64,000 nt of DNA from Nageia nagi (taxonomy: Eukaryota; Plantae; Pinophyta), in the NCBI GenBank assembly GCA_050084985.1, contig JBITNC010000002.1, positions 5,270,001 through 5,334,000 on the forward strand. The letters are read 5' to 3'. This document shows, piece after piece, positions 1,147 through 63,221 of this stretch. Position numbers and translations under genes: made by a program. The notes under the pieces were generated by a model that saw only the letters and a program-made list of their open reading frames with translations, had not been told where the DNA came from and ran no database searches. Each line of letters begins with the position of its first letter. Positions within the stretch are counted from its first letter, which is position 1.

Positions 1147-4100
1147 CTAATCTAATGCCGCCTTGTTCCGCCATCCATTTGATGGTCTAGGTATAGCATC
1201 AAACAGAGGTCTGGACACAGCAGATGTCAAAATACTCTGACTGTCACCTTTTGTTGCCGACCTAGAGACTGATTTTAGTGGAGATATCATTGCAGAATCT
1301 TGCAAACTTGGGGTGCTTGACGATCTCCTCACCTTAGATAACAAATCGTGCCCAGCCTTTCCATTACCAGAGCTATCCCCAAACCCCTTCATCACACCAA
1401 CTCCAATGACAAGCACATCAGCCATATTAGGGTCGCTTATCGTGAACGGATTATCATTGGCACCTGTTACATCACTTGAGATAGAAACTCTACCAGCAGA
1501 TTTTGGTCTCAAAGACAGGCCATTTCCACCCCTCCCAGTTAAGCTAGCTTCCTGTTTGAATACATTTTCAGTGACACCTGGTAAGAAATCTGTGCCTTCA
1601 ACCTTGGCTCGCCTTCTAACTGAGCTTTCAGTTGTTTTCTCAGTTTCAGTTGAACTTGTATCTGCAACAAGTTCCATCTTATGAAGGCCATTTGTTTTTG
1701 TTAAGTTGTCATATGTTAAGTCTTGCTCAGCCTTCATCAGTAAATCTCCATTGTAGAATTTTTTATACATCCTATTTACATCTTCAATTTGGCCATTAGC
1801 ATATGTTTGAGGTGGAGTGGATGGTGGATCTCCTGTGGGGAGAATATTGTCTGTTTTATACACAGTCATCTCTGTCCCTTCATCTCCCTCGCTCTTACTT
1901 GGTGAAAGCCCATAATAACCTCTTAAGAGACCCATCGCAACAGAAACTGGTCTACTATCAGATTTCTTTGTCCCAGGAACATAGACAGAGTCAGAAGACC
2001 CACAATATGATGTACGGGTCCCATACCGTGGCGGTCGTGCGGGAGGAATGCAACTACCAAGAAATTTAATGACAAGATTAGTATACCTCGGGTTCAAATG
2101 CTTTCAAATTATATTACTATAAATACACAAGACAAGCTCATTACTCTCCTGGTGTTTAAATTCAAAATCATTAAAAACAGTATGTTTTTCAAAAGAAGTA
2201 TAGGATGCTCCACCCAATGCAATTTTGAGCATACCAAGCATATTATGGAAAAGGCGATGCTTCAGACAAGAAGTATCTTTTATCTGCTGAAATTCCATAC
2301 CATCTCCATTAATTAAATAAAATACACAATGAATGGTATACACTTTTCATATGATGAAACATGCAAGCAATGGTTGCTCATAAGTGGGAATGAAAACCTA
2401 AACAAAATCCTCTGAATTAGAATAAAAAGCAATTAATGCTTATATTTGAGGAACATAAAGTGGACAGAGCTTCAAAGTTTCGACAAGATTTAGGTTGCAG
2501 ATTAACTGTCAAAAAGTTCCTGTTATCAGAATTAACTTTTGTATAGCTTGCATAATCCTTCATACTTCGTTTCCTGTTTCAGCAAAGCTGCAAAACAAAT
2601 AGAAAAGAATAAAGAAAAGAAAGAAAGTATATTAATGTCTCACGGAAAACGAATGACAGTCTATGAGACGATTGTAGTGAGCCAGTACATAGCATGTATG
2701 TCTCGTAGTAGGAATCGAACATGAGACACAAAGCATAGCAAGATCAACACATAACCAACTCAACCAACAATAGAGAAAAGATATGTTAGTGATCAAAGGA
2801 AATGTTGCTGATTTGCAAAGGCTGTGAACAGTGGCCACAATGGTCTTTGAGATGCTTTTGCTGACAAATTTTGGCAAATTGCTACTAAAAGATAATGGTA
2901 ACTTAGAAGCCAATTATCTATGGACCTTACAAGTGCCTAGCATTAAGATTCAAGAAACTTAACTTTTTCCTTGTTAGCGCCATATAGAGATACCTTAGAA
3001 AGACACAGTGACCTGATTATCAAATATTTAAGTCCTACACACTGTTGTGCAAACATCCCTCATTAGTGGTAAAATAGGTCTATCAATATTATGGATGTGC
3101 TGAGCAGTGACAGGCAATGCCTCTGTTAAAATCAGACCTTATGTCATTCCATTCTTCAAAAGAATGTCATCTTCCTTGATTACATTTCAATTCTATCAAG
3201 AATGCATCTATTTACATTGTTAGGAATTAGGTTTATCGCATTACATCATGATAGGTTTAGGTTATTTGAATATTAAAAGAAATGTTAATATGTTAGGTAT
3301 TTACGAATTATAAAAATAAATTATCTAAAAAAATAATTCTTAATAATAATATATTTTAGGCAAAGTTTAAAGTAGTCAGTAAATTACAGAACTTACAACT
3401 TTTATAATTAGGTTTATTGTATTACATCATTATAGGTTTAGGTTATTTGAATATTAAAACAAATGTTAGTATCTTAGGTATCTAGGAATTATAAAAATAA
3501 ATCATCTAAATAAATGATGATTAATAATAATATTATTATGGGAAAGTGGCAAGTAAAATACAGAACTTACCAACATTTATTTATTATTTAAATTTACACA
3601 ATGTTAATGCAAAGTTCACTCATTTGCAAGCCATCCTTGGTCCACATTTTCCTTGATCCACATTTTCCAATATAGTAATAGAGTAGATCTGATCCATTCA
3701 TTATATGTCATGAGATTTTGAAGGGCATAGAAGGCTGTGGATTTGAAAGAGTGCTGATAGATTTATATGTAAAATCTCTATTCGTTGTATGACTTCAAAT
3801 ATTTATGCCCATGTGAAGACCATAACACCTTACAAATAGTTATATGTAATAGTGTTGAAGAGTACACACAAATCTGAGAGAGAGACCAACTCTTGAGGAG
3901 ATTTCATAGTTCAAATAAAAGGGCATGTTTTCATGTAAGGGAAGCATCTGCCAATCCAAACGCATTTACAAGTGAGAAGGATTCAACTTTCACCTTTTAT
4001 TGAAGTTAAGAACTTCCCAGTAGCTTAAATTCATAATTTGCTCTCCTTCAAATATTATTGTTAAAAACAATCACTTGAATAGATAAATGATATACATTCA

Positions 4101-7100: not shown

Positions 7101-10100
7101 CTAATTATATCAAATAACAATAGAATAATAATATCACAATATAATATCAAATGAAGAATATCCCACAAAAGCCAAAACCATAATAATAATATCAATGACT
7201 GAAATTCCAAAGATTATAGGTTCTACCACTTCCCGTTGGTGAACCTCCTCGCCACTTGAGGGGGCAAACACAAAATATTGCAAATCAGGTCATTCATGTT
7301 AGGCAGCTAATCCATATTATCATTGTAAGTTGGCTATTGGACCACCACATAGCTTTATAATTAGCATTAATATCATTGTAAGTTGAATATAGGTTACAGA
7401 CTACGTTACCAGGTTCGCTACCCTGAGCCCTGATCTGGGTCCAGTTTGCACCTGGTTTGGGTGCAGGTCCAGTCCCCTGCATAGGGTCCGGAAAAATCCG
7501 ACCCAGTTCGCCTGCGATGAACCAGAGTTAGCCCTGGATGATTGGGACGGTTCTCTCCTTCAGGTTCTGAAGGTTCCTTCCAGCCAAGTGCCATATTCGA
7601 GAGTAGAGTATGGTTAGGGCACTCCCATTGATACGTAAGGTGGGATGGGAGCAAGCATTTCCATTTCTGCAGTAGGCTCACTCGCTAAGCAGGCAATTCG
7701 AAATGTTTAGGATGTTAAAGGGTTTTCCATGCATGGATTAGGGTTTCAGGATAAATCCATTTGGGGAATTTCTATCCTTGACTGCAATAAAATTCAACCC
7801 ACCAAAATATTATGAATGTCGCTCTCTCACAACTCTGTCCAGACAGGTGGTTGAAGGACGCAATGCACATTTTGCTTACAGATACAGAGACACGCTACTC
7901 TCTACGGCCTAAAAAGTTAAAACATTTTAATTAATTTTAAAAACTTTTAATTTTAGACTTTTTAAAACTTTTAAGTTTTTAAATTTTAATTCATTTCAAT
8001 AATTTTTACTTTTATTCAATTTTAATTTAAGTTTAATTTTAATTAATTTAATTTTTAAATAATGAATTTATGCATTTTAATTTTAAAAACTTTTAATTAA
8101 TTTTTAATTTTAATTATATTTTAAATTTTTTAAATTAATTAAATAATGTTTAATATATTAATTTTATTAATGTTTTAAATATATTTTAAATTATATATTT
8201 AAGATAATTTTAATATATCGAATTTAATGTTGAATTTCATGTTTTTAATATATTTTAAACTTTATTTTAAATGGTATTCAAATTTATGGCTGTTTTGTTG
8301 TTAATATGATGTTTTGTGATACTCTAATCTTAATTTCATGTTTCTATGTTGCACATATATAAAAATGTATGATTTTTACTTGTTTTTTGTATGGACGAAC
8401 CCAAACAAACCAAACCCCCTCAAAAAAATTTAGCCAAACCAGTAAACCCGGTTGCTGAATCCAAACCCGAACAGGTAACTTAGGTTACAGAGAACCGGTA
8501 ACTTAGGTTACAGAGATTGGTGCAGCACTTATAGTTATTTATAAATAGAAACATGGGTTAGACTTGTTGAGAATCTTTGAAACGTAGTTCGTAAGTTGTT
8601 GCAAGTTCTGCCTCTACCTTCTAATGCCTTGTTGAGTGCTTCCTCCTATGTTTTAGGTTAAGCATGTTTATTTCCTTCATGATATTCTCTTTTAATCTTT
8701 GAAGAAAAGTCACCAAAGTGCCTCCCTTGGAATGCTATGTACATTGTTGACTGTAACAAACCCAAGTAGAAAAACCCAGAAATATTGCAAAATAATAATA
8801 GATCTAAACAAATTAATGCCATAGTTTTCAGATCTGAAATACCAGATCTAAATGAATTGTAGATCTAATACCTTTTCAAGCCCTAGATAACGGATCACAA
8901 TGGAAAAATACTCAAATATTCATATCACAATAATTCCTGCAAAACCTGGCTTAAATGATATATAAAATGGCCAATACAATAGAAAATCCTCTGATTTAGG
9001 TAGCAAAATGCAGATTTGATACAAACCCTTTCTAGAAACCACAAATCACACCAGAAACACTACTAGAAGTCCTCAATGCTGAAGAAACAGGTACATATAC
9101 CGCAGAATCGCAGATCACTACAAAATAAGAAAGGTGCACCTGAATAAAGATGCAAACCCTCAAGTAAAATGCAGATTAGCCTAAGTCTGGATGTCTGGTT
9201 ATGTTCACAAAACCTTGCTGAAGGGTATCCAAAAAATGGTGCCAAACCCTTGATCTGAATGTAAAACCCTCTGATCTAGTCCCCAACTCCTGATTTTGAA
9301 CTTCAATCTCTGCAAGTTCTGATCTCAACTCGGATCTGATTATAATCTACAACTCTGATCCAAAACCTTTAGATCTGATAAATCTAGTCACAATACCTTC
9401 AGATCTGATGGATCTATTCACAAGACCTTCAGATCTGATGGATCTATTCACAATACCTTCAGATCTAATACATCTATTCACAATACCTTCAGATCTAATG
9501 CATCTATTCATAATTCCTTCAGATCTAATAGATTTATTCACAATTCCTTTAGATTTGGTCTCAAACTCAGATCCGATCTCAAACTCATCCAGAAATCTGA
9601 TCTCTTTCACAATGAGGCTCAAATGTGAACCTTGGATGGATTCACCATAGAAATTCCAGGTTGGTCTTCCTCAAAAGAGGCTGGCCTTCCTCTAGGGTTC
9701 CCACTTCTGTAGAGTTTCAATGCTACATAAGGAAAGAGATTGCTACTCCAGCAATGTCTCCAACATATCAGATGTAAAAATGATCCAAAATGTCCTTGCA
9801 AATGAAACCCTAATAACATATATAGACAAGTAATCCTAACGGAAGATTAGATCTTAGCCACAAGATGCAATGCCCCTCTCTAAAGTGTAAATCTGACCTT
9901 TAGATCCTCCTAAACAAATCAATCACACTTAATAAACCTATAGGGACCCACATTCACTTAAGAACCTTTTAAGCACATGCCAAATTAGATACAAATGCCA
10001 ATGATATTTTATAAAGTCTGATCTTTTATTTAGAAATACTCTTAAACAGTTAACTAACACACCTAATACACTTTATTTAAAATATAACATGCCTCTATAC

Positions 10101-14647: not shown

Positions 14648-16007
14648 CAAAAACCCTCATCCCCAATTTCCAAAAACCAAAACTTTCTCTTCCTTCTCTT
14701 CTCCTCTGAAATCACTCTGATCCACTGGAATTCGATCCCGGATCGTCTCAATTTAACGAGTTCACATTCATCCAAACCCTAGGGTGGTCCAAATTCCGCC
14801 AAATCTTCACCAAATTAGTCGCAAAAACCCTCTATCGAACCAAGGAATCGCACCGGATTCGATCATTCGCTGCAATGCCTGAACTTTCCAATGTGTATGG
14901 ACCCTCCTGAGAAATTTCAGGGCTCGTCCTCCTACAGGCGAGGGTTATTTGAGAGCAGGAAACACAATATAATAACGTTGTACGAAAGTGCCACGCCAAG
15001 TCCATGGCATGAAAGCTGGCAGGCCTTTGACATTTTGCACGGTAACATTTTGTGAGAATATTTTACTCTGGTCAATGGTGAAAAATAAATAAAAATTATT
15101 ACCAGGTATTTATTTACGCGTCCCATTTACGTTGTCGGTGCGAGGCAGGTGGTCACTAGGGTTCCTAACCTTACGGATAAAATGGCCGATTTATATTATT
15201 TACTACGTTAAATTTATTTATTTTATTGATTATTTATTAATATAAATATTTATATAGTTATAAGGGATTGGGTAGTTAAATTTTCTTATAATTGAATATT
15301 TGAAGGTATTGGATTTTAAAAACAAAATTTTGAACCTTATACACGATTCACTTTCATTATTTGTTTACCTTTTTCCAAACCAATTTTTTTATTGTCACCA
15401 TGTATGAGTCCAATCTTTATGGACAAGGAAAAAACACTGTTTATAGGTTGGAAGTTTCCTCCACATGATTTGTATTCCTGTCATGCATATTGTCACACTG
15501 ATTGTCGTTTTTAATATGAAATAGTTTATTTTACAAAGCATTCCTACAAGGTTTAAATATTATTTTGCAAATCTAAAGACTTGTTTTTAGGCTTTTTCTT
15601 ATATTGTGTAATTACTTCAATTTATATTATAACAATAAGGAAGTTTGAGCTCCTATCTTGCTTCAATTATATTATAAGAAGAGAGTGTTTCTAAGATCTT
15701 CCACTTCACTTAAAGAAATTGGTGAGGGTTAACAATTTTTCTTTCATGTCAGGAAAAAAATATTAGAGTTAAATTATATTTATTTATTTATTTATATATA
15801 GGGTAGAGGATTCAATAGTTGAGCATGTTCTAATGGTTGTGAAGGTTATTGTCATATATTTGTCCATTTATAGAATATATTTGGTCTCATAGTTATGCAT
15901 TAAAATATAAATTGTTGTACATTAAATTATCAATTTTTATAAATTTTCGTGTTAATAAGTAAATTACAAGTAATCATTTTAAATTTATTTTAAATATATC
16001 ATTGATA

Positions 16008-16443
16008 GGGGAAAAGATCTAGTAGTGATGCACCCTAATTTCATGCCTCTTAAATTCCAACTTAATAAAGTCTAATCGTTCTAAATTTTTTATAATTTCT
16101 TCCTCGCATAGTTGTCTACTTATAACTAAAGTTTCGAGTCATCTTCATCAAATTTGATAGGTTAATTAAACATGTGACTTAACGCTTAACTACTAGTGTA
16201 AGTGTAATTAACAATAGGGGGTTGTAATTCACACCCATAGGTATGACTTTAGAAAAGTGTTATTTTGGATAATTTCTACGACGATGCATAATTAACCTAT
16301 CAAATTTTATGATGATGACTTAAAACCTTAGTTATAAGCAGTCAACTAAACAAGGAAGAAGCTGTAAAAAAAATAGAGCAATTCAACTTTATTATGTCAG
16401 GTTTTAAGTGGCATAAAGTTAGGGTGCACAACTACTGGGTCCT

Positions 16444-16449
<6 letters not shown>
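16008..16449. mobile_element. Fold-back MITE with inverted arms of about 160 bp and TA flanks
   Basis: 16008-16168 is the reverse complement of about 16290-16449 (roughly 80% identity by eye). TA lies on both sides. A related end gggtagagga..tagttg occurs at 15801 after another TA run. Confidence 0.8.

Positions 16450-16505
<56 letters not shown>
16450..16505. repeat. (TA)n microsatellite
   Basis: About 27 TA units directly after the MITE end. Confidence 0.95.
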
Positions 16506-18096: not shown

Positions 18097-21000
18097 GGAA
18101 CTTAGACGAGCACTTGGAAATGCAATCACTTAGAAAATTTTATTTTTTTCAAGTTTTCCTAAGAGAGTAAAGGTGAGGAGGTAGAGGAGAGGAGAAGAGA
18201 GGCAAGACAAAGTGAAGCGAGGCACCATTGTAGCAAGTATCTTGTCAAAGAATTGGTGTGCCTTATATTCTTTTGCATTTTGCAAAGTACATGTCTAAGG
18301 CTTAGCACCTAACAATTTATTTTAAGTTTTAGGGTTTGAGAGAGCAAAGGTAAAATAGATAGAAGAGAGGAGAGGCAAGGTGAGCATAGATGTCAATACA
18401 GTAAGTATCTTAACAAACAATTATTGTACCTTAAATTATTCCATATTTTACAAAATACATGTATAGGGTTTAATACTTGATAATTATTTTTTAGTTTTAG
18501 GGCTTGAGAGAGCAAAGATGAGGCAAGTAGAGGAGAGGAGAGGTGAGGCATGGTAAATAGAGGCATTGGTGTAGTAAGTATCTTATCAAATAATTATTAC
18601 ACCTTGTATTCTTGTGCATTTTGTAAAATGCATATTTAGAGTTTAATACCTAATAATTATTTTTGAGTTTTAGGGCCCAAGAGAGTAAAGGTAAGGTAAG
18701 TAGAGGAGAATGAAGGTGAGGCGAGGAGAGACATTAGTGCAACAGGTTTACTTAAACATTTTACAAAATACATCTTTATCAAGGTTTAATAATTAATAAT
18801 TACATTTAGAATAAAAGTCTTTAGCATTTTTTTCAGAAAACCTGTCTTATCAAACAATTTTTGATCCTTGTGTATTCTTTCACATTTTGCATACATGTCT
18901 ATCATGACATTCAAAACCACAACATTTGATTTACAAGAACCAAGTAGAAAGATCAACACATTTAATTCAAGTTTGAGTATTTTGGTAATGAAGTTCAAAG
19001 CTCCCTCGAGATAGCCTGCACGAACAAGAGTCACTCATGCTATTAAAGTATTTATAACCCTCAAACACTAAACCTATATGATTGCATGTTATTAAAGTAT
19101 TCAAGTGCTTTCATCAAATCAAAAAGTTTAAGGGCATCCTTGTATTAGTCATGAATTATGTATACTCCAATCATTATAGTCCATGAAGATGTATTTGCAT
19201 CATGTAGATTATCAAATGATTCTTGTGCCTTGTGTATTCTTCCATATTTTCCATACATGTTTACAGGGCATTCATAACCATAGGATAGGTGAGGTAGGAA
19301 AAGGCATTAATGCAGTAGGTATTTTTTTATATTTTGCAAAATACATATCTATGAGGACTTAACACTTGATAATTTCATTTGGATAAAAGTCTCTAGGTCC
19401 TTTTTCAAAAAACCCATTTTTTATGTGTCTTGCAATCATTACAATCCATGAAATTGTGTTTGCATCATGCATCGTATCAAACAACTCCTGGGCCTTTTGT
19501 ATTCTTCCATGTTTTGCACACATGTCTATAAAATACTCACAACCACAACATTTGATGAAAACCCATTTTCAACTACTCTTTGATGGATGTCCATACTTTC
19601 TTCTAGAGCTTCAATGGTGTCATATGTTGGAAGAATTCTAGCAAATGTTACAAAGTTTTCTTTACACCTAACAATTGCATTTACTGAAAATTTTGTAGAG
19701 CCTTTTACAAAAATCCATTTTTTGCATATCCTATAATTGTTGTAGTCTATGAAACTGCATTCTGATGAGACATAAATTTTTTTATAAGAAATTAATTTAT
19801 GTTGTGTGTCTCGTAAAAAATATGTTAGTACTCTATCTTTTATCAGTGTCCTTACTCTTTAAATACCATAATAGATATAATGTTTCATGGGTATCAATCG
19901 TAAATAGAGTATGCATTGATTAGTGGGTCTTACCAATTGATGCTATTATATGTTGGATAAGATTAGCAAAAATGATAGTGGATGAAAACTCCAAGGATAC
20001 AGAAATGTTATGAAATTTTATCCATTGAAAACTACATATTTATTTAAATAATAAAAATCAATGATTGTTCCTTTGTGATGAAAATAAAAGTAAATTATTA
20101 TGTTAGGTATATATAGCTACCATTAATTATTGAATCATAAAGTGAATTCAGATCTTGGAATCATTTGAGATAACTCATCCTAAGGAACGCATACAATGCC
20201 AATAGTTTATGTATAATTCATTTATGTACAAAATGTTGACATTGTGTCCTTTAGGATAAGTTTTCTCAACGATTTCAAAATCATAATTCCTTTCAATATT
20301 TAATGCTATAAAAATGTATCAATGGAAAATAATTTACTTTATATGATGTGTACAATTTCTAATTACTATTATGTACATTTCAAGATGATTTGCATATTAA
20401 TGAAGAATTTTTCATGAAATTTTTATATTATAGAAACCATCTCCACTTTCTTCCGAAACTGATTTTCTACAATGTTGATGCATAAATATTTGTATAAGAA
20501 ACTAGTTTAAAAGTCTATCTTTTACCGATGTCCTCACCCTTTGAACATAAAAGCAACTATTATGACCTCCTTATTACCTTCTTGGCAAATTGTATTCATT
20601 CCTCCAAGGCATATTGATGTTATTAAAGACTCTTGAATGAGTGCTTAGGAACTTAGGCATACACTTAGAAAGTTATCAAGTGGGCAGCTAAAAAGTTTTG
20701 AGTTTCCTCGAGAGAGCATAGGTGAGGGGGTAGAGGAGATGCATGACAAGGCATCGATGTAATAAGTATATTATTAAATAATTGTCATGCCTTGTATTCT
20801 TCTCTATTTTGCAAAATGTGTTTATCAGGGCTTAACACCTAAAAATTACATTTGGATAAAAGTCTCTAGGGCCTTTTGCAGAAAATATATTTTTTATGTA
20901 TCCTGTAATCATTACAATCCATAAGATTATGTTTGCATCATGCTTCTTTTCAAACAATTCTTGGACCTTGTGTATTCTTATACATTTTGCATCTTTTTTG

Positions 21001-22555
21001 CAGCCATGAATTATATCCTCCAATCATTAGAATCCATGAAACAATGTTTGATTTATGCATCTTGTCAAATAATTATTGGGTCTTGTGTATTCTTACACAT
21101 TTTGCATTCTTATTGTATCCATGATTGCATATCCTCCAATAAATTGCAATCCATGAAATTGTTATTGCATCATGCATCTTGTTAAATGATTCTTGCATCA
21201 TTTACATTGCATAACCAAGAAGGTCAACAATGCATGTATGATTCATACCAAGAATAACACAATAAGATTTAATCACGTTATTAGAGTATTTACAACCAAA
21301 GTTATGTTGTAATGGTTTGTTCTCAAGTGCTTCATCAAAGAGTTAACTAGGACATATTTGTTGTAGTTATGAATTGCATATCATCTAATCATTGCATTCC
21401 ATAAAAAAGTATCCCATGTAAAAAATAAAAGGAACTTAGGTGGGCACTTGGAAAGTTTCAAATTTTTTGAGTTTGTCAAATAATTATTATGCCTCATATT
21501 CTTCCATATTTTGTAAAATACATATCTATCAAGTTTTAACACTTAATAATTATTTTTGAGTTTTTGGGTAGAGGATAGGAGAGGTAAGTAGAGGCATTGG
21601 TACAATAGGTATTCTTTAGTATTTTACAAAATACATGTCTATCAAGACTTAAAACTTGACAATTGCATCTAGAATAAAAATTCTTAGGGTATTTTTTTAG
21701 AAAACCCATTTTGTATATATTCTATAATCATTGCAAACCATGAACCAATGTTTGAATCATGCATTTTGTCAAATAATTCCCAAGCCTTATTTATTCTTCC
21801 ATATTTTGCATATATATCTATCATGGCATTCAAAACCATAATATATTTGATTTATAAACACCAAGTAGACATACACACATGCAATTTAAATTTTATGGGC
21901 ATTTTGGAAATGAAGTTCAAAGCTTCCTCAAGATAGTCTACACGATCAAGAAGGTCAACAATGCATGTATAATGATTCATCCTAGGAATAATGAAATAAG
22001 AGTCAATCATGCTATTAAACTATTTACAACCCTCATCCATTAGAGTTACATAGATGCTTACAAGTAGAACACATACAATGGTTATCTTGTTAGGGTCGGT
22101 TACACATTTTGCATCCATGTCTATCAGGGGATTTACAATCATAACATTCAACGATAAACCATTTTTAACTACTCTTTAATGTATTTCACGAAAAATCATT
22201 GACAACTCTAACAATGATTCCAATGGGAATCTTTAACAACCCTAACATAATTAACAACTTTTTGCTATGCTAGCAAAGAAGCAATTCTTTATTATCAACC
22301 TCCACATTATGCAACCATGTATTGTATTTGGAATATAACTCATTGCCTTAATCTATTTCTCCATTTTTTTATAGATCTATGTTTGTGGGTGTGATATCTC
22401 TCCTACAAGAAAAGTATGTACCCTTTTTTCAACTTCAATCCAACCATATCCAGGTATATTCTTGATTCTTCTAACTGTCATCAATGTCCTTACTCTTTGA
22501 ACATTATCCAACTACCCACTTCAACATAAATATTTGAAAGGAGAACATAAGATTA
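18097..22555 (-). pseudogene. Scrambled, tandemly amplified PLS/E-class PPR gene fragments
   Basis: Many minus-strand IDMYAKC.RIHKA..LFDK and W..MI.GY motifs. An E/E+ remnant YVLLSNIY..W..VQRVRTLM..PGYGWIEVEKRVHTFLVGEISHPQ lies at about 22380-22550. Stops and frameshifts throughout. Confidence 0.8.
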
Positions 22556-49445: not shown

Positions 49446-52400
49446 TTACACAGTTTTCACAAGCTTTGTCTGGATACTCTGCAGATCTACATTATTTTTA
49501 ATGCTGAAGACAACAAAAATAGTTGAATCACAACATCATCCACATATGATGCAATTATCCTAAACATAGATATTAACTTTGCTATACTTCCAACAAAATT
49601 TACCTGTAAAGATAGTCACCACTAGTGGCTGTCCTGCCAGATAACCAGTCAGGAACCAACTCCTGAAGAAGCTGCAACTGTTCTTCAATCTCACCTTTAA
49701 AAAATAAAAACGCATTAAATGAGACTGAGGACATTTCAGTATTTCGAAGATGAAGGAAATATACAAGTAAAAAGCTGTTTACTTCTATCTGTAACATCAC
49801 AGTGATTGGATATTATTTTGTGCACAAGCTCCTGCTGTGTGATAACTGAACGCTTGCAGGAACGAAATATATCACGAATCATGTTGAAGAGTTTTGGTAA
49901 ACATGCTATCATCTGCTGACGTCTCTTAGCACCAGATAGACCCAACTTGCAATCCTCGAGATTTTTTTTCTCTCTCTCAAGGACCTGGAGATAATATAGG
50001 GTGTAATTGGCATGAGAAAAAGAGAGATAAAGATGAGCTAAATGCAAACATTGTTGGACATAAAACCGAACAAATAACGTTATATGGAACAGAATAGATG
50101 ATGACAAGTAACATCTTTCAATTTCACAAAATTGATGCCTTACAGAAATTCCTAGACAAGTCAATATATAAAAAAGGCAAAGTTGAAAATATTTGCAAAC
50201 ATTGAAAATAAATGAATAGCATCAACATAGTCATAATAGGAAAAAAAAAAAAAAAATTACCTTGCTCACCAGTTCTGGGGAAAGGCTCTTAAGTATTTCC
50301 CTTTCTGATTCGGAAATATTCTCAAGGCCCTCATAACATGACTTCTGAACACTGATACTTCCAATCTCTGTTTCCTTTGAACTGTTGGATTCACTATCAA
50401 AATTTAGCTTGCAAGGCTGAATAATACTTTTTTTCAGTGATTGAATTTTTGCAGGGCATGACTCGGTTTCTTTAATTGGAGCAACATTCTCATCGTCTGC
50501 ATTTTGTCTGGATCGCTTGGGACAGTGTATGGGTGGAGTTTTGAGGAAGACCTTCTCTGGAGTTTCCTCACTTTGAATCTTCTCCAAGCACAAGGTATTT
50601 GTCGGAGACTGTACAGGACAAGCATATTTATTCATTGCTTTCTCATTGTTCTTGGGTTTTACCACCATCCTTGAGGGAGAGAACCTAACTGAATCTGCAC
50701 AGTAATTAAGTGCAGAGTGCACAGAGTTCTTTGTAGATTGAAGATTTTCAGTGAAGTTATCATTTAAATTACACTCAGCAACCTTTCTTTTCAGAGTGAC
50801 TGGATGAAGTGAAGCCTTCTCACAAATAGATGAATCTTTACAAACAGAATAATCACCAGAATTTTTATCTAATTTGTTAAAATTTATTGCTCTTTTCACA
50901 TTTGATGCTTCAGATTTCCCCTCGGACAATTGAGAAACGCAAGACAAATTTGGAGAACCCAAACTCGGAGGACGTTGGGGAGATGAAATATGTGAAATTG
51001 GATTGGGCGAATCAGGAACATTCTCAAAACGAACGTTCTTCTTACAGGTAGAGCTCTTGATACAAGACTTGACTGGAGTTTTTTGAGCAATGGGAACAAC
51101 AGGAACTGTGTCCAGAATTGCAGAATCAGGTTCAACCCTGTCTGTTGTGATGGAAAAACAACTTTTACCCAAAGAGGAACTTGCATTTTCTATTGCCATT
51201 TCTTTTTTGCAGAGCGTGTTTTCTTTAGAAGCATTGTTAATGATATGTTTTGCTCCAGTGACCTTAGAAAGAGTCTCTAATGGATCAGAAACAGTAGCTT
51301 CAGATGCATCAGGTTGCTTCAAAACTGGGGAGGAATCAATCTCATAAGATTTCTTCAAGCCTTTACTGTCCCGAAAAATTTTACTGGATCGGAATTTGGA
51401 TGCAAAGTGGGTCTTGAAACCTGCAGGAAAATGGGAACTGACAGAAGATGGAATACTCACACCAGAACCATGTGGTTTTCTTACTTCAAGCGCTTTAAGA
51501 GGGTTCAAATTTTGCTCCTGATCAGGAATACATGATGAATTGGGAGCTACATGAGCTGTGGCCTTTAAATGAGAAAAACTCTTCTGGAAGCTTTTTGGCA
51601 ACAGAGGAGATATTGTAATACCCGACGGCGTACAACTTAGTGTAGGAACATCATTGTTGGTCTTCACAAGAGTGGACAAACATTTTTTATTAAAAGGCTC
51701 TGGCAGATCTTCCAGTGGAACATCAATCCCCTGCAATGATTTGAAAAAGTAAAAAAACAACTCACTAAAGTTGCAAACAATTTTGAGTGATTTGACAAAC
51801 CTGAAATTTATGTGCAAAGAAAGAGGGAGAGAGTTTCATTATGGCAATCACCTCCGGATGGGATTTGGCAAACTCCACCAGTCGTGTATGAAATGTCCTT
51901 CGCAAAATAGATGTATTGGCTTTGAAAGCAGATGTAAAACCATGTCCATCCTTTGCATTGGGCAATGCATCATGCAAGAGAATGATTTTAAGTTCTGCTT
52001 TCATGCAGAGAGTTTTCTCATCATGAATCATCATCTTCTCCAGCAACAGTGCTTCTGGCAAAATATACTTCATCTGTGCCACATGACAGTGCATAAAACG
52101 CCTGAAAAAAAGTAGTTAAAATGTAATCATTAGTAGTGAAGTAGGGACGCACCATTTGTATGTGTTGTATCAAGCACATTGACAATTAGAGAGAAGAAGT
52201 AGAGCAGGCCTGGTTTTCAATTTGTGATTGTGAGGCATACGGTTCAACTGGTAAGGCAAGGATCCCATATGGGTGGATGGCATCGTGGAATATGATTAAA
52301 TATGATTTAACTCAAAAATACCAAAATTTCAGTTCATGTGCAGAAAATGAAAAACTAGACATTTTGTAGGAAGAAAATTTCTAACAGATGCTATAAATTT

Positions 52401-54067
52401 TGCAAACTCAACTCATCATCTTTAGTAGTACGAGTTTGTTAATAATTTACCGCCAAATTAATGAAGCTCCAAGTTTTATCAAATAAATACAAGGTAAAAT
52501 GAAACTGTCATGCATTCCAAATGCCAGGAAGGATGCTATGTTGTGACAATATAACTTCAAGTACCTGAAAATGCTTCAAATTCTCCCAACAGGACCTGCC
52601 AATGAATATCACTAAGCCCTTCCACAGGCCCATTGCCTAAGCTACAGTTTGTAGGGTATATACGTTAGAACTCCAAGTAGAAAAGACAGAGAAATGATGT
52701 CATGAAAAAGGAGTACACCTAAACATAGAGAAAAAACCAAGACCAACAAAGGGCAAAGCCAAATAATTACTCTTCACAACCATCAAGAAGTTATATTGAT
52801 CCGGAGATCTTGCCTTAAGTGTTGATTTGGCTAGGAGTTTTCACTTATGAGCATGATCCATTGCTTAAACTGAAATCTGGTATTATGAAGGTTTTGATTT
52901 TGTAATCACTCCATCTTTGATTAAATTCTTTAAGGCTAACATTCTTAGAACGAGGATTTTGAACACTCTCACTTTTGGGTGATGTTTGGAGGTTTTCCTT
53001 TATGTCTTGTGAATTTTCTATGCCATGGAAAATGTCGAAAATAAATCGCATACCTGTTTGTCATGGCTTCTACTTGAGGGGAGATGTTACCAAATGTAGA
53101 TATTGTCTTGCGGAGCCTGAGCAATCTAATAGCAGCCTCCATGGCATCAAAAGACTCCGCCAAAAGTGTATACCTGTAAAATCTCTTACATCCAGATCTA
53201 TCAGACAACAAAACCACCTAGAAACCAGAAAAAATTGCAAATTTATCAGCCATCCTCACCACTCAGAAATCAAACGAATAAATACACAATTCGCCCCAAA
53301 CCCAGAAATACAAATTTGTCAAAAAGTATTTACATCCAGAAACAATTTTATTTTTTCTTAATTCAAAATAAATAAAATTTCTAGCTCACCAGGCTATCAA
53401 AGCACCAAGAAATCTATATTAAAAAAAAATGTGTTTCATACAACTAAACATCCAGGACTTCCCAAAAAAATATAAATTGATTAAACAACAAACCTATATA
53501 TTCAAAGGAATATACAAATCCATCAATGCAAAAGACCGAAAACTATACATTAATAAGAAAAAAAAAAAACAGAATGCAGGAAAAACAAAAACAGTAGGGA
53601 TTCAATTACTTTTCGGGAAGATTGAAGTCCGCTTCCTTTGGAGTTTTGGCTTCCAATTCCGCGGCCTTTCCCTGCGAATTCTTTGGAGTTTTCTCCGCCG
53701 ACATCTGCAACTTCTTGGCCTCCGCAATAACATCTTTGAGAGATTTGGCGATCCGCTTATTCCTAGTTCTTGAGGAGGGCGGATCATAGACCTTCTCAGG
53801 AGTCGAAATATCATCAGAAAGGGTTTTAGCAGATAACTTAGCAGGGCTCTTAGAAGGGAGCTTTGCAAGAGCTGGGGATTTGGTAGGGGTTTTAGCGGGG
53901 GATAATTTGGCAGAAATTGTGGGGCTGAGCCTTACTGGCTTCTTGCAGGGAAAGCACAGAACCGCCTGGTTTGTTGGGGCGGGTGAGGACTTGAAAAGCA
54001 GGGGTTTTTCGTTTCTGGTTTTGTGGGCAGAGGACGCCATGGATCTTCTCTTGCCAGCGGACTCCAT
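49446..54067 (-). CDS. CDT1: CDT1-like DNA replication licensing factor; exons 53610-54067, 53054-53173, 51852-52101, 50261-51730, 49783-49984, 49604-49694, 49446-49503; about 882 aa
   Basis: CDT1 domain LPEKY.LLAESFDAMEAAIRLLRLRK..STF..I..QVE.MT.RRF..H.AQMKYILPEA and HPEG.DVP...LPEPF. C-terminal MCM-binding region RRQQMIACLPKLFNMI..IF..EIEEQLQLLQELVPDWLS. All junctions are GT-AG and in frame (2649 nt). Confidence 0.93.
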
Positions 54068-54097
54068 TGCTGATGGGTATTCGATTATCTTCCAGAT

Positions 54098-54242
54098 TTT
54101 GGCGCTTCTGATACAGATTTTTGGTGTTGGATTTTCCCGCCAAGTAAGGAGGGAAATCAATAGGCACGACGATCTTGGACTTGAGTGCCAATTGTGTTGC
54201 TTGTTTGTATTTATAGAGCATCCTTAACCAAAACTAGCCGTT
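54098..54242 (-). promoter_or_regulatory. CDT1 leader/promoter: two E2F sites, TATA box, MSA-like core
   Basis: TTTGGCGC 54098-54105 and TTTCCCGC 54133-54140 both fit TTTSSCGC. CTATAAATA on the minus strand near 54208-54216. AACGG (minus) at 54238-54242. Confidence 0.7.
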
Positions 54243-55899: not shown

Positions 55900-56870
55900 T
55901 TCCATCCACCTGATGGCTATGGATAAATAGTTCAACTATAGCCAAACGGTAGCCGAGCTAGAGCCCCTCTACAATTTTGTTATATCAATTAGAATGACTC
56001 AAACTTGAAACCTCCTAAAGGCAAATCCAAGCACTTAACCATCACGTTGTCCCCTTGAGGACATAGAAATTTTTGTTTTTCTATCAAAGGTTATCATAAT
56101 ATTATTTATATTAGATTATTAAATCTTAAAGTATTTTAATTGAGTTAGTAATTATTATACCTTAATTGTAATATTACTAAATCTTTGGGTTATTTTAAAA
56201 TGTTGAAACTTTTAAATTATCTTCTTAATACTTTATAGTATTCATAGTATCTTCCATCATTCTTCCATTCCTCTTAAAATATATTGCACAAATAGCATAG
56301 AATCTCCTTTTTTCTTGATCTTTGGAATTTTCACTTATATACATATTTTTCAACCTTCCCAATGTGTCAATCCCCAAGCCTCACATTTAGGTTGAATAGG
56401 AATATTAATTACAAAATGGGTTACAATTTTTTCAAGATTGCTATGAAAATGCTATAAATTTTATTTTTTAGTTTTTTATGGTTGGATTATTTAGAATTAT
56501 ACTAAGTATCTCATTTTCCCAAATTCAATTCCAATTTAACCAGAAAAGAGATAGTATTTAATTATTATTTTATTTTTAGTCAAGGTTTTATACTTATAAT
56601 TTCTCCAAATGCTTATCAATTACACAACGATCTTTCCAAAATGGGAATTTTCCTTTATCCCTTATTTTCTATCTTAATTCTTGGCATGCCCTTAATAGAA
56701 TTAGATTATCTAACTGCATGTATACCCTTATTTAGCATCACATTCAAACATGGGTTCATTTTAGTTTTCCTACCTCTATTGTATTTGATAGGGATTTGAG
56801 AATTTTGGGCAATTTTTTGACCATTTTTTGGGAAAGGATGGATACCAAGATGAAAAACCAGCATTGCCTT

Positions 56871-57760
56871 TGTAATGTCCCAAAAATGAAATTACAGAAA
56901 TACAAGTATAGAAAAAATATAGAACTGAAATATTACTCAAAAGACACCCAAAAAATGAGTAATAACCAGCCAAGAGAATATATTAAAATATTGCAAGACA
57001 ATACATGCGTTGGAATAACCAAGGGCATCTACAAAATAACATCAAAATGCAAATATAACACCTTCAAAATGCCATGAATCTCCTTGGGACTTTTTTTTAT
57101 GTTTTTAGGGCAATCACACCTTCAATGAAATTGCCAAAGATCCCAACCATGCACCTTCAATGCACTTTGGGGTGAGCAAGACCTTTAATCTTCACTCAAA
57201 GAAACAGGGCAATCACACCTTCAATGAAATTGCCAAAGATCCCAACCATGCACCTTCAATGCACTTTGGGGTGAGCAAGACCTTCAATCTTCACTCAAAG
57301 AAACTCAAGGGTTTCAGATTTCAATTTTAATAATATCAATAACATACCCAAAATGGAGTGTTGCATCTCCTTATATAGACTCCAACCCTAATCTTGCATT
57401 GACCCCTTTAAGCTAATCTAAGCCATTGATTGGCCTTATTACAAATAAAAGTACTTAAAATAATATTAGAATAACATAAAAGTTTATTATAATTCAACAT
57501 TGCACTTTTAAGTAAAAATCCACTAAGTTAAATGGATTTTCGTGTGTAGGCACGATATGGAAGACTGGTCCGACTGGCAAACTTCAAGTAGCCATAACTC
57601 TTTCATTTCTTGTCCAAAAGGGGTCATGTGACCACTTAAAACAAATGCCACAAGATGCTCTATCCAATTATGAAGGTGCAACGACCATATTTGACTTATA
57701 GGAGAAAAGATTTGTGGAAAATCCCAAATGCAAGATATTCTTAAAAATAGGGTCATTACA
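56871..57760 (-). repeat. 3' LTR (890 bp)
   Basis: Direct repeat of 61655-62395 with an extra 99-bp tandem copy and about 48 extra bp. Confidence 0.95.
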
Positions 57761-57877
57761 AGTTCACCCTTCTCAAATTGCTTGTCTTCAAGCAATCCCA
57801 ACACCAACTCTACCCTGCTTAGCTGAAACAAATTTAAATCATCTATGATACCAAGATCCCAAATAATTTTACCAAAA

Positions 57878-59830
57878 CTACCAGCCCTTACTGCTCCAAA
57901 GTCCAAAATCTTTATTGCTTTCTGAATGCTTGACCTAACCATAGGGTGATGTTGCAAACCAAGGGGCTCAAGTGGTTTGAGTTCATTGTCATCTTCATCC
58001 CAAGGTGTCGACGAGCATCTCCAATTCCTATTCCTTTCAGCTTCTGCTTGTAGATCTCTTAAACATTTTGCTCCTTTCTCAAGCTGAAAGATGGCAGCAG
58101 CTTTTTCACTGGTCATGGATTCTAATTGTGTTTGCTTCAAATACAGTAAATCAGTAAGTTCACACTATTGCTTCTCTAATTCCATTTGTGCCTACTTTGA
58201 GTATTGTTCTGCATCCCTTTTCATACTAGATATTTCAACTCTCATCTTTTGAGTTTCAGCCTCCATGGCAGAAAGTTTCATCTCTACTTCCCTCTATGCC
58301 TGGCGGGCCTGCTCTGCTTCTTCTCTCCATGCTTGAGATGTCTGACTAGCTTCCTCTGTAGGCCTTTTTTATTCTTGATGAGATCGAGCTTCCAATGCTT
58401 GAAGCTCCTAAGTTAAGGTTGCACATTCCATCTCAAGCATAGACACCTTGTGTTCCAGATCTGCTACTTTCTGAGTCCTTTCATCTACTGTTCTCTGAAT
58501 TCTTGCCAGTGCTGAAGATGATTCAGCTGCACGGTGTTCCAACTCTGCTTCTCTCTCCATGGCAGCCATTCATGTTGCATTATGTGTTGCACGTTCCTCC
58601 TCTACCCTTCGTTCAGTTGATGCCAGTTCTTCACGCAATGTCTGTATCATCCTTATCTCTGTCAATTTTTGATTTCTAATTAGAGATTCTGTATTTTCCT
58701 GTAATGTTACAAGTTTCTCTTCAGAAATAATAGCCTGCCTTTTTAGCATCTCCATTGAAATCATGAGTGCTTCTATTTCATCATTCTTTGAAGTTAGGGC
58801 ATCAGCCATCTCTGATTCAACAACGCTTTCTGCAGTCTTTGCTAAAGATAGTTCTCCTTCTAGCTCCTTTACTTGAGCATTGTATAAATTCTTTTCTTCT
58901 CTCTCTACAGAAAGTAGTTCCTCAAGTTGCGCATTTTCATACTTGTATTCTTGCAGCCGAGATGAAAGTCCTGCACAAACCCTCGCCAGTCTGGCTTCTT
59001 TGGACTGGCCCATTGAAACAATAATTTTAAGTAGTCCTTGTGCCTCATCAAGATCTTCTAGTCCTCTAGCAGGCTTAGTTGCTTCATCTATACCAACTCA
59101 TTCAGAATGGATGGCTTTGGAGAAGGCTTTACCTCGACTATCTCTTCCCTAAGTTTCTTCTTCTGGCCTTTATCTGTCTCATTTTCTAACACAGTACCAG
59201 CCTTCTCTGGGGTTTCATTGGTGATGCATTCTCTGCATACAACTGTACTGTGACAGTGCCATTCTTAGATGCAAAATTGCATTTCACAGAACCCTGATCT
59301 AACTCTGCAACTGCCAAAGAATCTGAAGCATTCACTCCTGAAGATGAATCAAATGTTATGCCCTACAAATTACTAGTAGGAGAGCTTGATACAGCTTCTT
59401 CATTATCCTCTTTTCTAGGAAGTTCTATCAATCTATCAATTTTCTGCTCATCATCGTTGTGCAAAGAAGGCTTTTGAACTTCTAGAACAGCTGATTTTGC
59501 TAGCTTCACATCCTGATTAATTTCAACTGGTAGATAGATATCTGATTGGTTAACTGCATCCTTTTCCTGATGTATTAAAGAGTTATCCCTCTCAAGAAAA
59601 CCATTAGATTCTAGCAGTGTAATATCTTCCCCAATATCTTTTTCAGAACCATTTGGCTTCACCAAAGATTTAGTACGGGATGTCTTCTTAGGTCTCTTCA
59701 CGTTAGAACTTTGTACCTGTGGCTTTCCAAGCAAATCTTGCTCAGATGCTAGCTTCTGTATGTCAGGCAGCTTATCTAAATTATCAGCAACAACTTGTTT
59801 AGCTCTCTAATCTACCTTTTCAAACAAATC
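57878..59830 (-). pseudogene. GC1: Processed (intronless) pseudogene of golgin candidate 1 / golgin-84 inside the LTR element
   Basis: DLFEKVD*RAK at the start, then LDEAQGLLK..GQSKEARLARVCAGLSSRLQEYK.ENAQLEELL, EEERATHNAT*MAAMEREAELEHRA, ELTDLLYLKQTQLESMTSEKAAA.FQLEK, ending KAIKILDFGAVRA. Continuous without introns, with at least 8 stops and one frameshift. Start codon and TM anchor are missing. Confidence 0.9.
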
Positions 59831-61654
59831 AAGCTATCCCAAATCCGTCTCAAGTCTCCATATGCCTCAAAACTGAGTGAAGGTAAGTCGGATTCAACGT
59901 AGGCCAGCCAAAACTGAATATGAAACAATTTGTAAAGCCATGAAAGCCACAAAAAGAAGTGAAAAGATACCACATACATCCATGAAAAAGCATCTCCTTT
60001 TGCAATGTTCCATGTGAGAAGTGTTCTACCCCACCTACCATGCATCCACATGAGAAAAATCAACATTTTATTTGAAGGAACTATGGTTGTAGTAAATTTA
60101 CCTTTACATAACAGAATTTGTGAAATGTCAAAGGATTTTCCTCCTCCCATGAGATGAGTATGAGACATGTACCATGGCTGAATATGCTTGTGCTTCTCTC
60201 CTCCAAAAGAACTCTTACCATATATGAAAAGAATTCCTAGATCCCATGCATTTAAAGGTTGATCACAATTCTCAAGTGTGATTGATCTTTCCCTCACAAA
60301 ACTCTTCAAATAAGGAAAGCTAAGGCCATTATGATCAAAATTATCTAAGGGCTTAATTTGGAGTTCTAGCCCATATCTCTCCAAACTTTCACAAACTGAA
60401 AATTCGCCAACACCCTTTTGTATCTTTTCCATAGAATATACAAAAAACAAATCTGAAACATTCTCTAACTCTTTTCCCAAGTAATGAGCATCATGTTTCT
60501 CATTGAATTTATTCTCAACATGTGTAGGTATAAATGTACAAAAAGAAGTATTTTGGTTCTCTTTCAAACATACCTTAAGTGGGAGAGTAGCATCTCTATC
60601 ACCAATCTCTTGAGTGAAATCAATCATGCTAGATGAACCATGCTCCATTGTTGAAATGTCTTAATTACCCACATTTTTTTCAAAATTTTCTATTTGGCCC
60701 TTTTCCTCTTTTTCAATGGGAGGAACAACTTCAAAATTTTCTGCATAATTCTCCTCAAGCTCTTCCTTTTGATGGAAAATTTCAGATTTCTCTACTTTTC
60801 CCAAAGTTGATACACCATCTTGACCATTAAAGGTGGGAATGGTCATTTTCTGTTGCAATCGTCTGTTCTTCCTCTTAGGTTCACTGGTTCCATTTTGTTG
60901 CATGCTTGCCCTTTTTAATGTCACTATCTCTTGCCTATTTGCTTCCTCTAATGTCAACATCTTTTGCATCAAAGCAATCATTGCATCCAACTTTTGTTCA
61001 TTCTCTTTTCTCCTAAATAGTTCCATGATCCACTCTTAGCAAACATCAACCTTCAAAACCCTATTTGTGCAATTCCTGAAATATAGGTCAGAAATCATAG
61101 GAAATGCTAGATTTCATATCAAAAAAAAAAAAATTCAACTTTTTTTCTAAAGATAGCAATGAGAAGTAGAGATTAATGGGTGCTCAAATCTACCCGAAAA
61201 ATACCTCCAACTGATTAAATCTTCAAAAACGTCACTTTCCTATTTTTCCTTTGAAAAACCCTTCTAGAAGCTTAAAACGGCATGCAAAGTGCCCAAAAAT
61301 GCTCCCAAGGGTCAAGTACTTTACTTAGCATACTGAATCTAATGCTAAGAGTCCAAAATCCACCCTAAATGACCCCCTCAAAATAGGGTTTCTTGATATG
61401 GACGAATTTGAGGTTTCTTTTTCTATAACCAATCAAATCACAAAAAAAAACCCTAAATCTAAAATTTCAGAAATCTTACCTAAATTTTTTTCTCAAACCA
61501 TAGATCTGCAATTTGGCCAAAAGGGTATCCAGATCTGCAATACCCAGATGCTGGAAACTGAAGATCTGAATCTTCTACAAAAACTCTAACTCCAAATCTT
61601 TGAAAAATGTTAGATCTAACCACAGGCTGGCAAGATCCAAGCTCTGATACCACT

Positions 61655-62395
61655 TGTAATGTCCCAAAAATGAAATTACAGAAATACAAAATGAGTAATA
61701 ACCAGCTAAGAGAATATATTAAAATATTGTAAGATAATACATGCGCTGGAATAACCAAGGGCATCCACAAAATAACATCAAAATGCAAATATAACACCTT
61801 CAAAATGCCATGAATCTCCTTGGGACTATTTTTGTGTTTTTAGGGCAATCACACCTTCAATGAAATTGCCAAAGATCCCAACCATGCACCTTCAATGCAC
61901 TTTGGGGTGAGCAAGACCTTCAATCTTCACTCAAAGAAACTCAAGGGTTTCAGATTTCAATTTCAATAATATCAATAACATACCCAAAATGGAGTGTTGC
62001 ATCTCCTTATATAAACTCCAACCTTAATCTTGCATTGACCCGTCTAAGCTAATCTAAGCCATTGATTGGTCTTATTACAAATAAAAGTACTTAAAATAAT
62101 ATTAGAATAACATAAAAGTTTATTATAATTCAACATTGCACTTTTAAGTAAAAATCTACTAAGTTAAGTGGATTTTTGTGTGTAGGTGCGATATGGAAGA
62201 CTGGTCCGATTGGCGAACTTCAAGTAGCCATAACTCTTTCATTTCTTATCCAAAAGGGGTCATGTGACCACTTAAAACAAATGCCACGGATGCTCTATCC
62301 AATTCTGAAGGTGCAACGACCATATCTGACTTGTAGGATAAAAGATTTGTGGAAAATCCCAAATGCAAGATATTCTTAAAAATAGGGTCATTACA
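61655..62395 (-). repeat. 5' LTR (741 bp)
   Basis: Adjacent to the Met-tRNA PBS; TG..CA termini. Confidence 0.95.
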
Positions 62396-63221
62396 GCCTT
62401 TCATCCATAAATATATGGACGAATTGAGGTGATGAATAGGATAATATATGATTCTTGGGTATTATAGTAATCATTTGAAGACTTAAAATAAGAAACTCAT
62501 CGACATACAATATTCATACAATAAGGAAGTCCATACTTCGACTAGTAAGACTCCATTTGAGATGTGTTTTAGGTACCTTCCACCATCATCATTTGATTAT
62601 AGTTTTGGGGAACAAGATGACTATGATCAAGCATTCTTAAAGGACAAGGAAGAGAATGAAAATTTTATTAAGAAGATTTAACATGTTTACATGAAGGTAC
62701 AAAAGCACTTAAAGACAACCAAGAAAGTGTAAGCTAAGGCATGAACATAGAGTTAATCATAAATTCAGAGTAGATGACAAGGTATGGTTATGTCTCAAAA
62801 AGGAGAGATTACAAGGTCAAGCTAAGAAGTTGAAGCCTCTCCAGTATGGACCATTTGGTATCATTGACCAAGTAAGTAAGAATGTCTTCAACTTGAATTT
62901 GCCTACCTATATGCAAATTTATTTGATGGTTAATGTGGACAACTTGAAGTTAGATGAACTAATTGTGATAATAGAAGATGTGAGATAAGTTTTTTCATCA
63001 ATTGATGATTTATCTTAGGTATAATGAAAAAACTTGAGTAGGATTCAACCTTGTAAAAGAAGGTTCATACCACTAGAAGAGGATAATAAGAAGTTCAGTT
63101 GATTGGTATAAAGGGAAACTATCAAATAATGTGAAATAGTATGATAGAACAAAGGTTGATGAGTTTTTTCTTCACATCACTTAAAAGTGAAGCTTTTGGA
63201 GATCAAAATCCTCCTTAGTAA

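Follow-up and report, generated by a model that had tools for sequence, protein, structure and literature searches.

A non-autonomous LTR retrotransposon carrying a spliced golgin-84 fragment, probably acquired by template switching

The 64-kb stretch of plant DNA analysed here (positions 5,270,001 to 5,334,000 of contig JBITNC010000002.1; "the window" refers to this whole stretch of 64,000 nucleotides) contains a long terminal repeat (LTR) retrotransposon at 56871-62395, on the minus strand, which carries in the same orientation a decayed, intron-free fragment of golgin-84 (GC1) coding sequence. The element is non-autonomous, judging from its own sequence and that of cargo-free relatives, and it probably obtained this cargo when a reverse transcriptase switched templates onto GC1 mRNA.

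Element anatomy and the golgin-84 cargo

The element is bounded by two LTRs that begin with TG and end with CA: a 3' LTR of 890 nt (56871-57760) and a 5' LTR of 741 nt (61655-62395), both on the minus strand. Pairwise alignment gives 715 matching and 26 mismatching columns (Kimura two-parameter distance 0.036, or 3.6%), and 22 of the mismatches are transitions, 11 per LTR. The 149 gap columns mostly reflect a 99-nt tandem duplication and a further 48 nt that are present in the 3' LTR and absent from the 5' LTR. A 5-nt target-site duplication, GCCTT, flanks the element (56866-56870 and 62396-62400), and a polypurine tract, GAGAAGGGTGAACT (57761-57774, minus strand; 11 of 14 purines), abuts the 3' LTR. 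Two nucleotides internal to the 5' LTR lies a primer-binding site, TGGTATCAGAGC (61641-61652, minus strand). This combination of paired LTRs, duplication, primer site and purine tract is not due to chance. The LTRs, duplication and purine tract named in the original prediction, which was made from the window's sequence, are thus all borne out; the methionine primer site that it also named is present beside the 5' LTR, and we take it to be of the initiator methionine tRNA type. No tRNA gene was found in the 64-kb window, whose GC content is 33%.

The cargo (57874-59830, minus strand) is 1.96 kb long and extends from codon 10 of golgin-84 to just before the membrane anchor. Its left bound lies at 57874 or 57877, three nucleotides (57874-57876) overlapping the element, and its right bound lies at 59830; the originally predicted bounds (57878-59830) differ by at most 4 nt. 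The reading frame at 57523-58164 matches Pfam Golgin_A5 (PF09787; E 1.4e-7). The translation of 57874-59133, with stops written as X, is that of golgin-84/GC1, with 80% identity to Taxus golgin-84 across 81% of the query, 75-76% identity to Cryptomeria, Ginkgo-labelled and other proteins, and 60-64% identity to the top-scoring angiosperm proteins. By tblastn, the cargo is collinear with golgin-84 from residue 10-11 on, in three frames. Judged by this golgin affinity, the window's plant is gymnosperm-like. A horizontal origin of the cargo was considered and rejected: a tree groups it with Cryptomeria and Taxus golgin-84 (support 94/95, not starred), on a long branch.

Evidence on the parental gene and on sibling elements comes from contigs of related public sequencing runs, six of which (X1, X2, X3, X4, X14 and X18) were compared with the element. 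X3 and X4 are one sample, X4 is RNA and X2 and X3 are DNA by guess, and the best run shares 0.25 of the window's words. A single X4 contig of 2,767 nt spans the whole cargo with 74 substitutions and 2 gaps (about 96% identity), and X1 contigs cover 57874-59830 piecewise. Loose ends of X1 and X4 contigs continue for nine codons back to the start codon and, on the other side, into the membrane-anchor codons. Since these contigs run past both of its edges, the cargo is truncated within coding sequence on either side, and it has neither start codon nor membrane anchor. The earlier description of the cargo as collinear, sense-oriented GC1 coding sequence therefore agrees with the Pfam match, the gymnosperm golgin-84 identity and the transcript contig.

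The cargo is also a pseudogene, a feature absent from the original prediction. It contains eight in-frame stops and 1-nt deletions at 59093 and 59210, and it is out of frame relative to the element's upstream reading frame. It carries no poly(A) tail, there being no sense-strand run of at least 8 A in 57761-59900. Among the 72 tallied changes between the window and the X4 contig, the window's copy has 61 of the C-to-T type, and 38 of the 49 C-to-T changes with listed positions are in CG or CHG context, a pattern that points to a methylated, decaying copy. No golgin protein is predicted from the cargo, which is dead. Separately, an intron-bearing GC1 contig (X2 record 14, 59438-59697) resembles the window in not having the transcript letter at 59497, 59538 and 59595; part of what separates window and transcript may thus reflect species differences or repeated changes.

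Six exon boundaries, all between codons, are fused in the cargo. One is documented by an intron with both flanks: in X18 record 4, about 120 letters separate the parts that align to the left and right of 59044, and these parts show the three-letter AGG overlap expected of a GT-AG intron. Three are read from loose ends, namely a GT donor at 58699 in X18 (X14 and X3 have an edge at this point too) and, in X2, AG acceptors at 59696 and 58333. Two more, near 58642 and 58192, are implied by alignment edges at 58644 (X3 record 17) and 58193 (X18 record 2). As far as the relatives' contigs indicate, the parental GC1 has introns across the cargo span and the cargo is a spliced copy. The predicted absence of introns from the cargo is upheld, as DNA contigs of relatives break at six points where it is continuous, and an intronless parent, which had been named beforehand as evidence to the contrary, is not what was found, because the relatives' GC1 carries introns here.

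Additional intron-free GC1 contigs are present in two of the runs. In X2, records 9 (25 differences in 283) and 11 (10 in 233) cross exon junctions without introns, and record 12 is likewise intron-free (40 differences, 12 gaps). In X3, records 18 (9 differences in 126) and 21 (7 in 316) are of this kind; record 21 lacks the window's deletion at 59093, and at 58907 it agrees with the window against the RNA contig. These low-depth contigs suggest that the X2 and X3 genomes hold more than one processed GC1 copy. A diverged GC1-like contig is also found in X1 (record 3, 58437-58720; 32 differences in 284, versus 10 in 284 for the main contig), and it is possibly a paralogue or another retrocopy, possibly expressed.

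Cargo-free siblings and the gag-derived frame

The original proposal was that GC1 mRNA replaced the pol of an autonomous Gypsy element and so founded a retrovirus-like transducing family. Against this, contigs in four of the six runs (X1, X3, X4 and X18) link 57876 to 59834 or 59837 across 16-19 letters; the X3 joint has just 22 letters on its short side, X2 gives the same letters as loose ends, and X14 lists no such joint. Because siblings join across the cargo site with so few nucleotides, no pol lay there and the family was already pol-less; the cargo displaced about 13-16 nt. The cargo-free element is about 3.4 kb long with an internal part of 1.95 kb, and its reading frame continues through the cargo site. 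A Ty3/Gypsy pol would hold reverse transcriptase, RNase H and integrase in Gypsy order; no such domain was found within this element, and none lies in the short stretch at which the sibling flanks meet. The cargo thus appears, from these sequences, to have entered a family that was already non-autonomous.

The replacement of pol is therefore very improbable, notwithstanding the gag-derived start, a possibly pol-like tail, the full set of cis signals, and the chance that the further intron-free GC1 contigs are sister copies. Additionally, the cargo and the upstream frame are not in phase, eight stops lie within the cargo, and no listed contig bridges the cargo-element junction. The proposed golgin-carrying, transducing family fares no better, for the cargo is dead and no second cargo-bearing copy occurs among the listed contigs.

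Contig depth in X2 and X3, which is not a copy number, is 126-464 across most internal bins versus 0-7 over the cargo, and suggests a high-copy family. Among the listed contigs of these two runs, a partial set from which an absence proves nothing, none covers 57880-58159 or 59700-59769. Two other interpretations of the joints were rejected. The 16 sibling-joint letters are not the siblings' version of 57862-57877, as records 24 and 25 align through 57876 yet keep 16-19 extra letters; and an X3 joint of 56795 to 62399 (24 letters between) is not an empty target site, as the flank is not restored.

Upstream of the cargo, a reading frame at 59834-61026 (minus strand) may be derived from gag. It lacks the capsid core, has an internal stop at 60661-60663 and does not share the cargo's frame. 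The capsid-like core that is absent from the window's frame is retained in a relative, P0190; a PF03732 match is found in this relative only (E 0.13, below the cut-off) and not in the window's frame, and Atlas leads are 0.81-0.86, all under 0.9. The predicted gag-like start is consistent with these weak matches. Downstream of the cargo, a 3' internal remnant (57761-57876, minus strand) holds 38 open codons ending near LEDKQFEKG. This peptide had been read as the last codons of a Gypsy pol; it is present in the sequence, and presumably resembles a Gypsy pol end, and the 38-codon tail that holds it has no Pfam match. A literature search on the motif gave no occurrence of LEDKQFEKG in the first 10 of 34 matching papers.

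Two further observations concern related elements. In X14, a low-depth contig joins 57795 to 61645, that is, the purine-tract end to the primer-site end, with 28 letters between and 21 letters on its short side; it is possibly a miniature derivative of the family. At 61620-61654, dozens of contigs in X2, X3 and X14 have the primer site and adjacent bases in common and then diverge, which shows that the motif occurs in other families too; candidates for a helper may be among these contigs.

Junctions, age and the route of capture

In the sequence of events that we infer, an autonomous partner, probably of the Ty3/Gypsy type, would package and copy the pol-less family in trans. Its reverse transcriptase, while making the minus strand, would switch away from the element RNA at a short U-rich match some 115 nt beyond the purine tract, copy 1.96 kb of GC1 mRNA, and rejoin the element RNA no more than about 16 nt from where it had left. 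The chimeric cDNA would then have integrated with the GCCTT duplication, been methylated and decayed. Sense orientation, loss of introns, truncation of a partial mRNA copy at both ends, absence of poly(A), the presence of both LTRs and, less clearly, a short junction match are shared with the cases of Tan et al. 2016 (PMC5131818). Template switching, as originally predicted, is the likeliest mechanism, and the junctions also allow a short duplication of 6-7 nt.

The siblings have two 15-nt units at the cargo site, both starting TTTGGTAAA, and the junctions can be aligned to them in two ways. In the first, the cargo displaced 13-16 nt and matches the element for 3 nt at its 3' end (chance 0.067); the three bases at the 5' junction (59831-59833, minus strand) are element sequence with one substitution, or untemplated. 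In the second, the cargo ends in TAGTTTT, and the same 7 nt of element sequence stand at the 5' breakpoint (a coincidence with a chance of about 0.0025 within 25 nt); the cargo is then flanked by a duplication of 6-7 nt with one mismatch, and one 15-nt unit has been lost. No listed sibling joint shows a one-unit recipient. The microhomology that had been suggested at the junctions is thus 3 nt or 7 nt at the 3' junction, with none at the 5' junction. The second alignment could also arise if reverse transcriptase returned to element RNA that RNase H had partly degraded, and so recopied a few bases.

The second alignment bears most directly on a different route, in which a reverse transcriptase of the long interspersed nuclear element (LINE) type primed internally on GC1 mRNA, using the 7-nt match, and the resulting cDNA entered a genomic copy of the element. 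This would leave a 6-7-nt duplication and no tail, as in a tailless retropseudogene, with one 15-nt unit missing before or lost later. The element does appear interrupted rather than gutted, TAGTTTT both ends the cargo and recurs at the 5' junction with one mismatch, and several retrocopy routes are possible given the intron-free GC1 contigs in X2 and X3. Tailless retropseudogenes are defined for therian mammals in PMC5322556, where mammalian tailless retrocopies are primed by 2-18 nt of target complementarity; the cargo is like them in having no tail and, on one alignment, a 3' end that matches the target. It is unlike them in its plant host, and where the class as described there has 8-35-nt duplications and A-rich priming sites, the cargo has an imperfect 6-7-nt duplication and a U-rich site (PMC5322556). 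The poly(A) tail and target duplication of a LINE-made processed pseudogene, which had been named as contrary evidence, are not found either, apart from the imperfect 6-7 nt on one alignment, and the 3' end lies inside coding sequence. All listed sibling joints carry both repeat units, although contigs drop rare variants, and the cargo is not clearly younger than the LTRs. Overall, a LINE-type insertion is unlikely.

Somewhat similarly, a double-strand break in a genomic element copy could have been patched with GC1 cDNA or older processed-GC1 DNA, by end joining on a 3-nt match with the loss of 13-16 nt. End joining would fit the modest deletion, the short match at one end and the bases at the other that may be filler. 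Possible donors exist in the intron-free GC1 contigs of varied divergence (X2 records 9, 11 and 12; X3 records 18 and 21), of which record 21 has the window's letter at 58907. However, such a repair leaves the truncation at both ends and the sense orientation of a 2-kb cargo unexplained. The cargo is also 96% identical to the transcript, with mostly C-to-T changes (61 of 72), and so an old, diverged pseudogene was not the donor. This route is improbable.

The relative age of cargo and insertion was estimated by applying per-copy LTR transition rates, by CG, CHG and CHH context, to the cargo. This predicts 44 C-to-T changes in the cargo, where 49 are listed and up to 61 tallied, giving a cargo/LTR decay ratio of 1.1 (95% interval 0.66-1.9) to 1.4 (0.84-2.4). 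The cargo is therefore about as old as the insertion, which fits capture near the time of insertion and disfavours entry of the cargo into this copy long afterwards, though not entry soon after. Conversion between LTRs is a possible confounder.

Several observations weigh against capture by template switching. The 3-nt junction match arises by chance 6.7% of the time, the 5' junction shows no match to the mRNA, and the second alignment resembles a target duplication. In the fly cases of Tan et al., the captured sequence replaced part of the reading frame and none interrupted it, whereas here just 13-16 nt were lost (PMC5131818). The missing bridge across the cargo-element junction counts here as well, although the listed contigs are a partial set and its absence among them proves nothing. 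An autonomous partner was sought among 2,259 candidates of 237-755 residues (two relatives) and among 1.84 billion representatives (seven matches); none of these has a pol domain, a weak negative in both cases. Finally, the decay ratio has a wide interval (0.66-2.4) built on 22 LTR transitions, and uses 54 of about 74 cargo differences, with a donor transcript that is maybe another species'.

Template switching nevertheless remains the probable route. A broader proposal is doubtful: that a high-copy, pol-less gymnosperm family takes up long spliced mRNAs almost without loss of its own, because reverse transcriptase returns where it left the RNA, with the intron-free GC1 contigs as sister copies and the 15-nt-repeat site as a recurring capture point.

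Genomic setting and relation to known captures

The element lies about 2.7 kb upstream of the first long exon of a CDT1-like replication-licensing gene, whose exons occupy 49736-54223 on the minus strand (Pfam CDT1_C, E 5.5e-8). Just right of the target site is a decayed Gypsy integrase end (62487-62988, plus strand; SH3_Tf2-1, E 5.2e-12), and the element may have inserted at the edge of this older, oppositely oriented element. Elsewhere in the window, degenerate repeat families of 60-170 nt, with spacings near 101-117 nt and multiples, occupy 18193-22147 and presumably represent a decayed pentatricopeptide-repeat gene. A 30-nt tandem array lies at 9331-9570, and 16005-16452 holds an inverted repeat of 169 nt around a 110-nt spacer; a 318-codon open frame without a Pfam match (1147-2103, minus strand) is probably a host-gene exon.

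LTR-mediated gene capture is itself already known. Tan et al. described retrocopies formed by template switching across animals, and also cited maize Bs1 and 27 rice retrogenes inside LTR elements (PMC5131818). Similarly, eight LTR-retrogenes are reported in Thlaspi arvense, and three Arabidopsis cases cited, in PMC8764390. The present element is like these plant cases in that an LTR element holds spliced host coding sequence (PMC5131818, PMC8764390). It is unlike Bs1, which joins three host genes and is multi-copy and expressed, whereas here a single gene is involved, dead and seen once. From the fly retrocopies it differs in having a match at one junction and a single known insertion site; in every one of the 15 fly cases, a part of the element's frame had given way to the captured sequence, and none looked like a continuous element that had been interrupted (PMC5131818).

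In the same plant group, a gymnosperm survey puts the elements reported to hold exon sequence at 481,821 per conifer genome on average, gives examples from Gypsy and Copia, and describes many retrogenes without poly(A) and duplications (PMC13477047). Unlike that genome-wide survey, the present analysis concerns one case, with at least six exon junctions over 1.96 kb and the empty site resolved. The element is also like those of the TR-GAG type in having LTRs, primer site, purine tract and a gag-derived frame without enzymes (PMC13570524). LTR elements of 1.5-4 kb with gag remnants are treated as common in that source, and the cargo-free form of about 3.4 kb falls in this unnamed range; unlike TR-GAG, the capsid core is missing and the frame has a stop, so that it is a gag remnant and not a working gag (PMC13570524). 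No paper joining golgin with an LTR-retrotransposon retrocopy was found in a search whose scope excluded subscription papers and bioRxiv supplements, and golgin had no matches in two supplement files of PMC13477047; golgin as cargo may be unreported.

With the cargo dead, nothing points to a new gene or to a benefit for the element. The geometry differs from the fly replacement pattern, and "interrupted versus replaced" cannot by itself separate LTR capture from later insertion. Overall, the element is one clean case of an already known route by which genes are duplicated, in a group of plants whose captures have been surveyed mainly as totals. Both the donor transcript and the empty site can be read here, and they show a non-autonomous element that gained 2 kb and lost about 16 nt.

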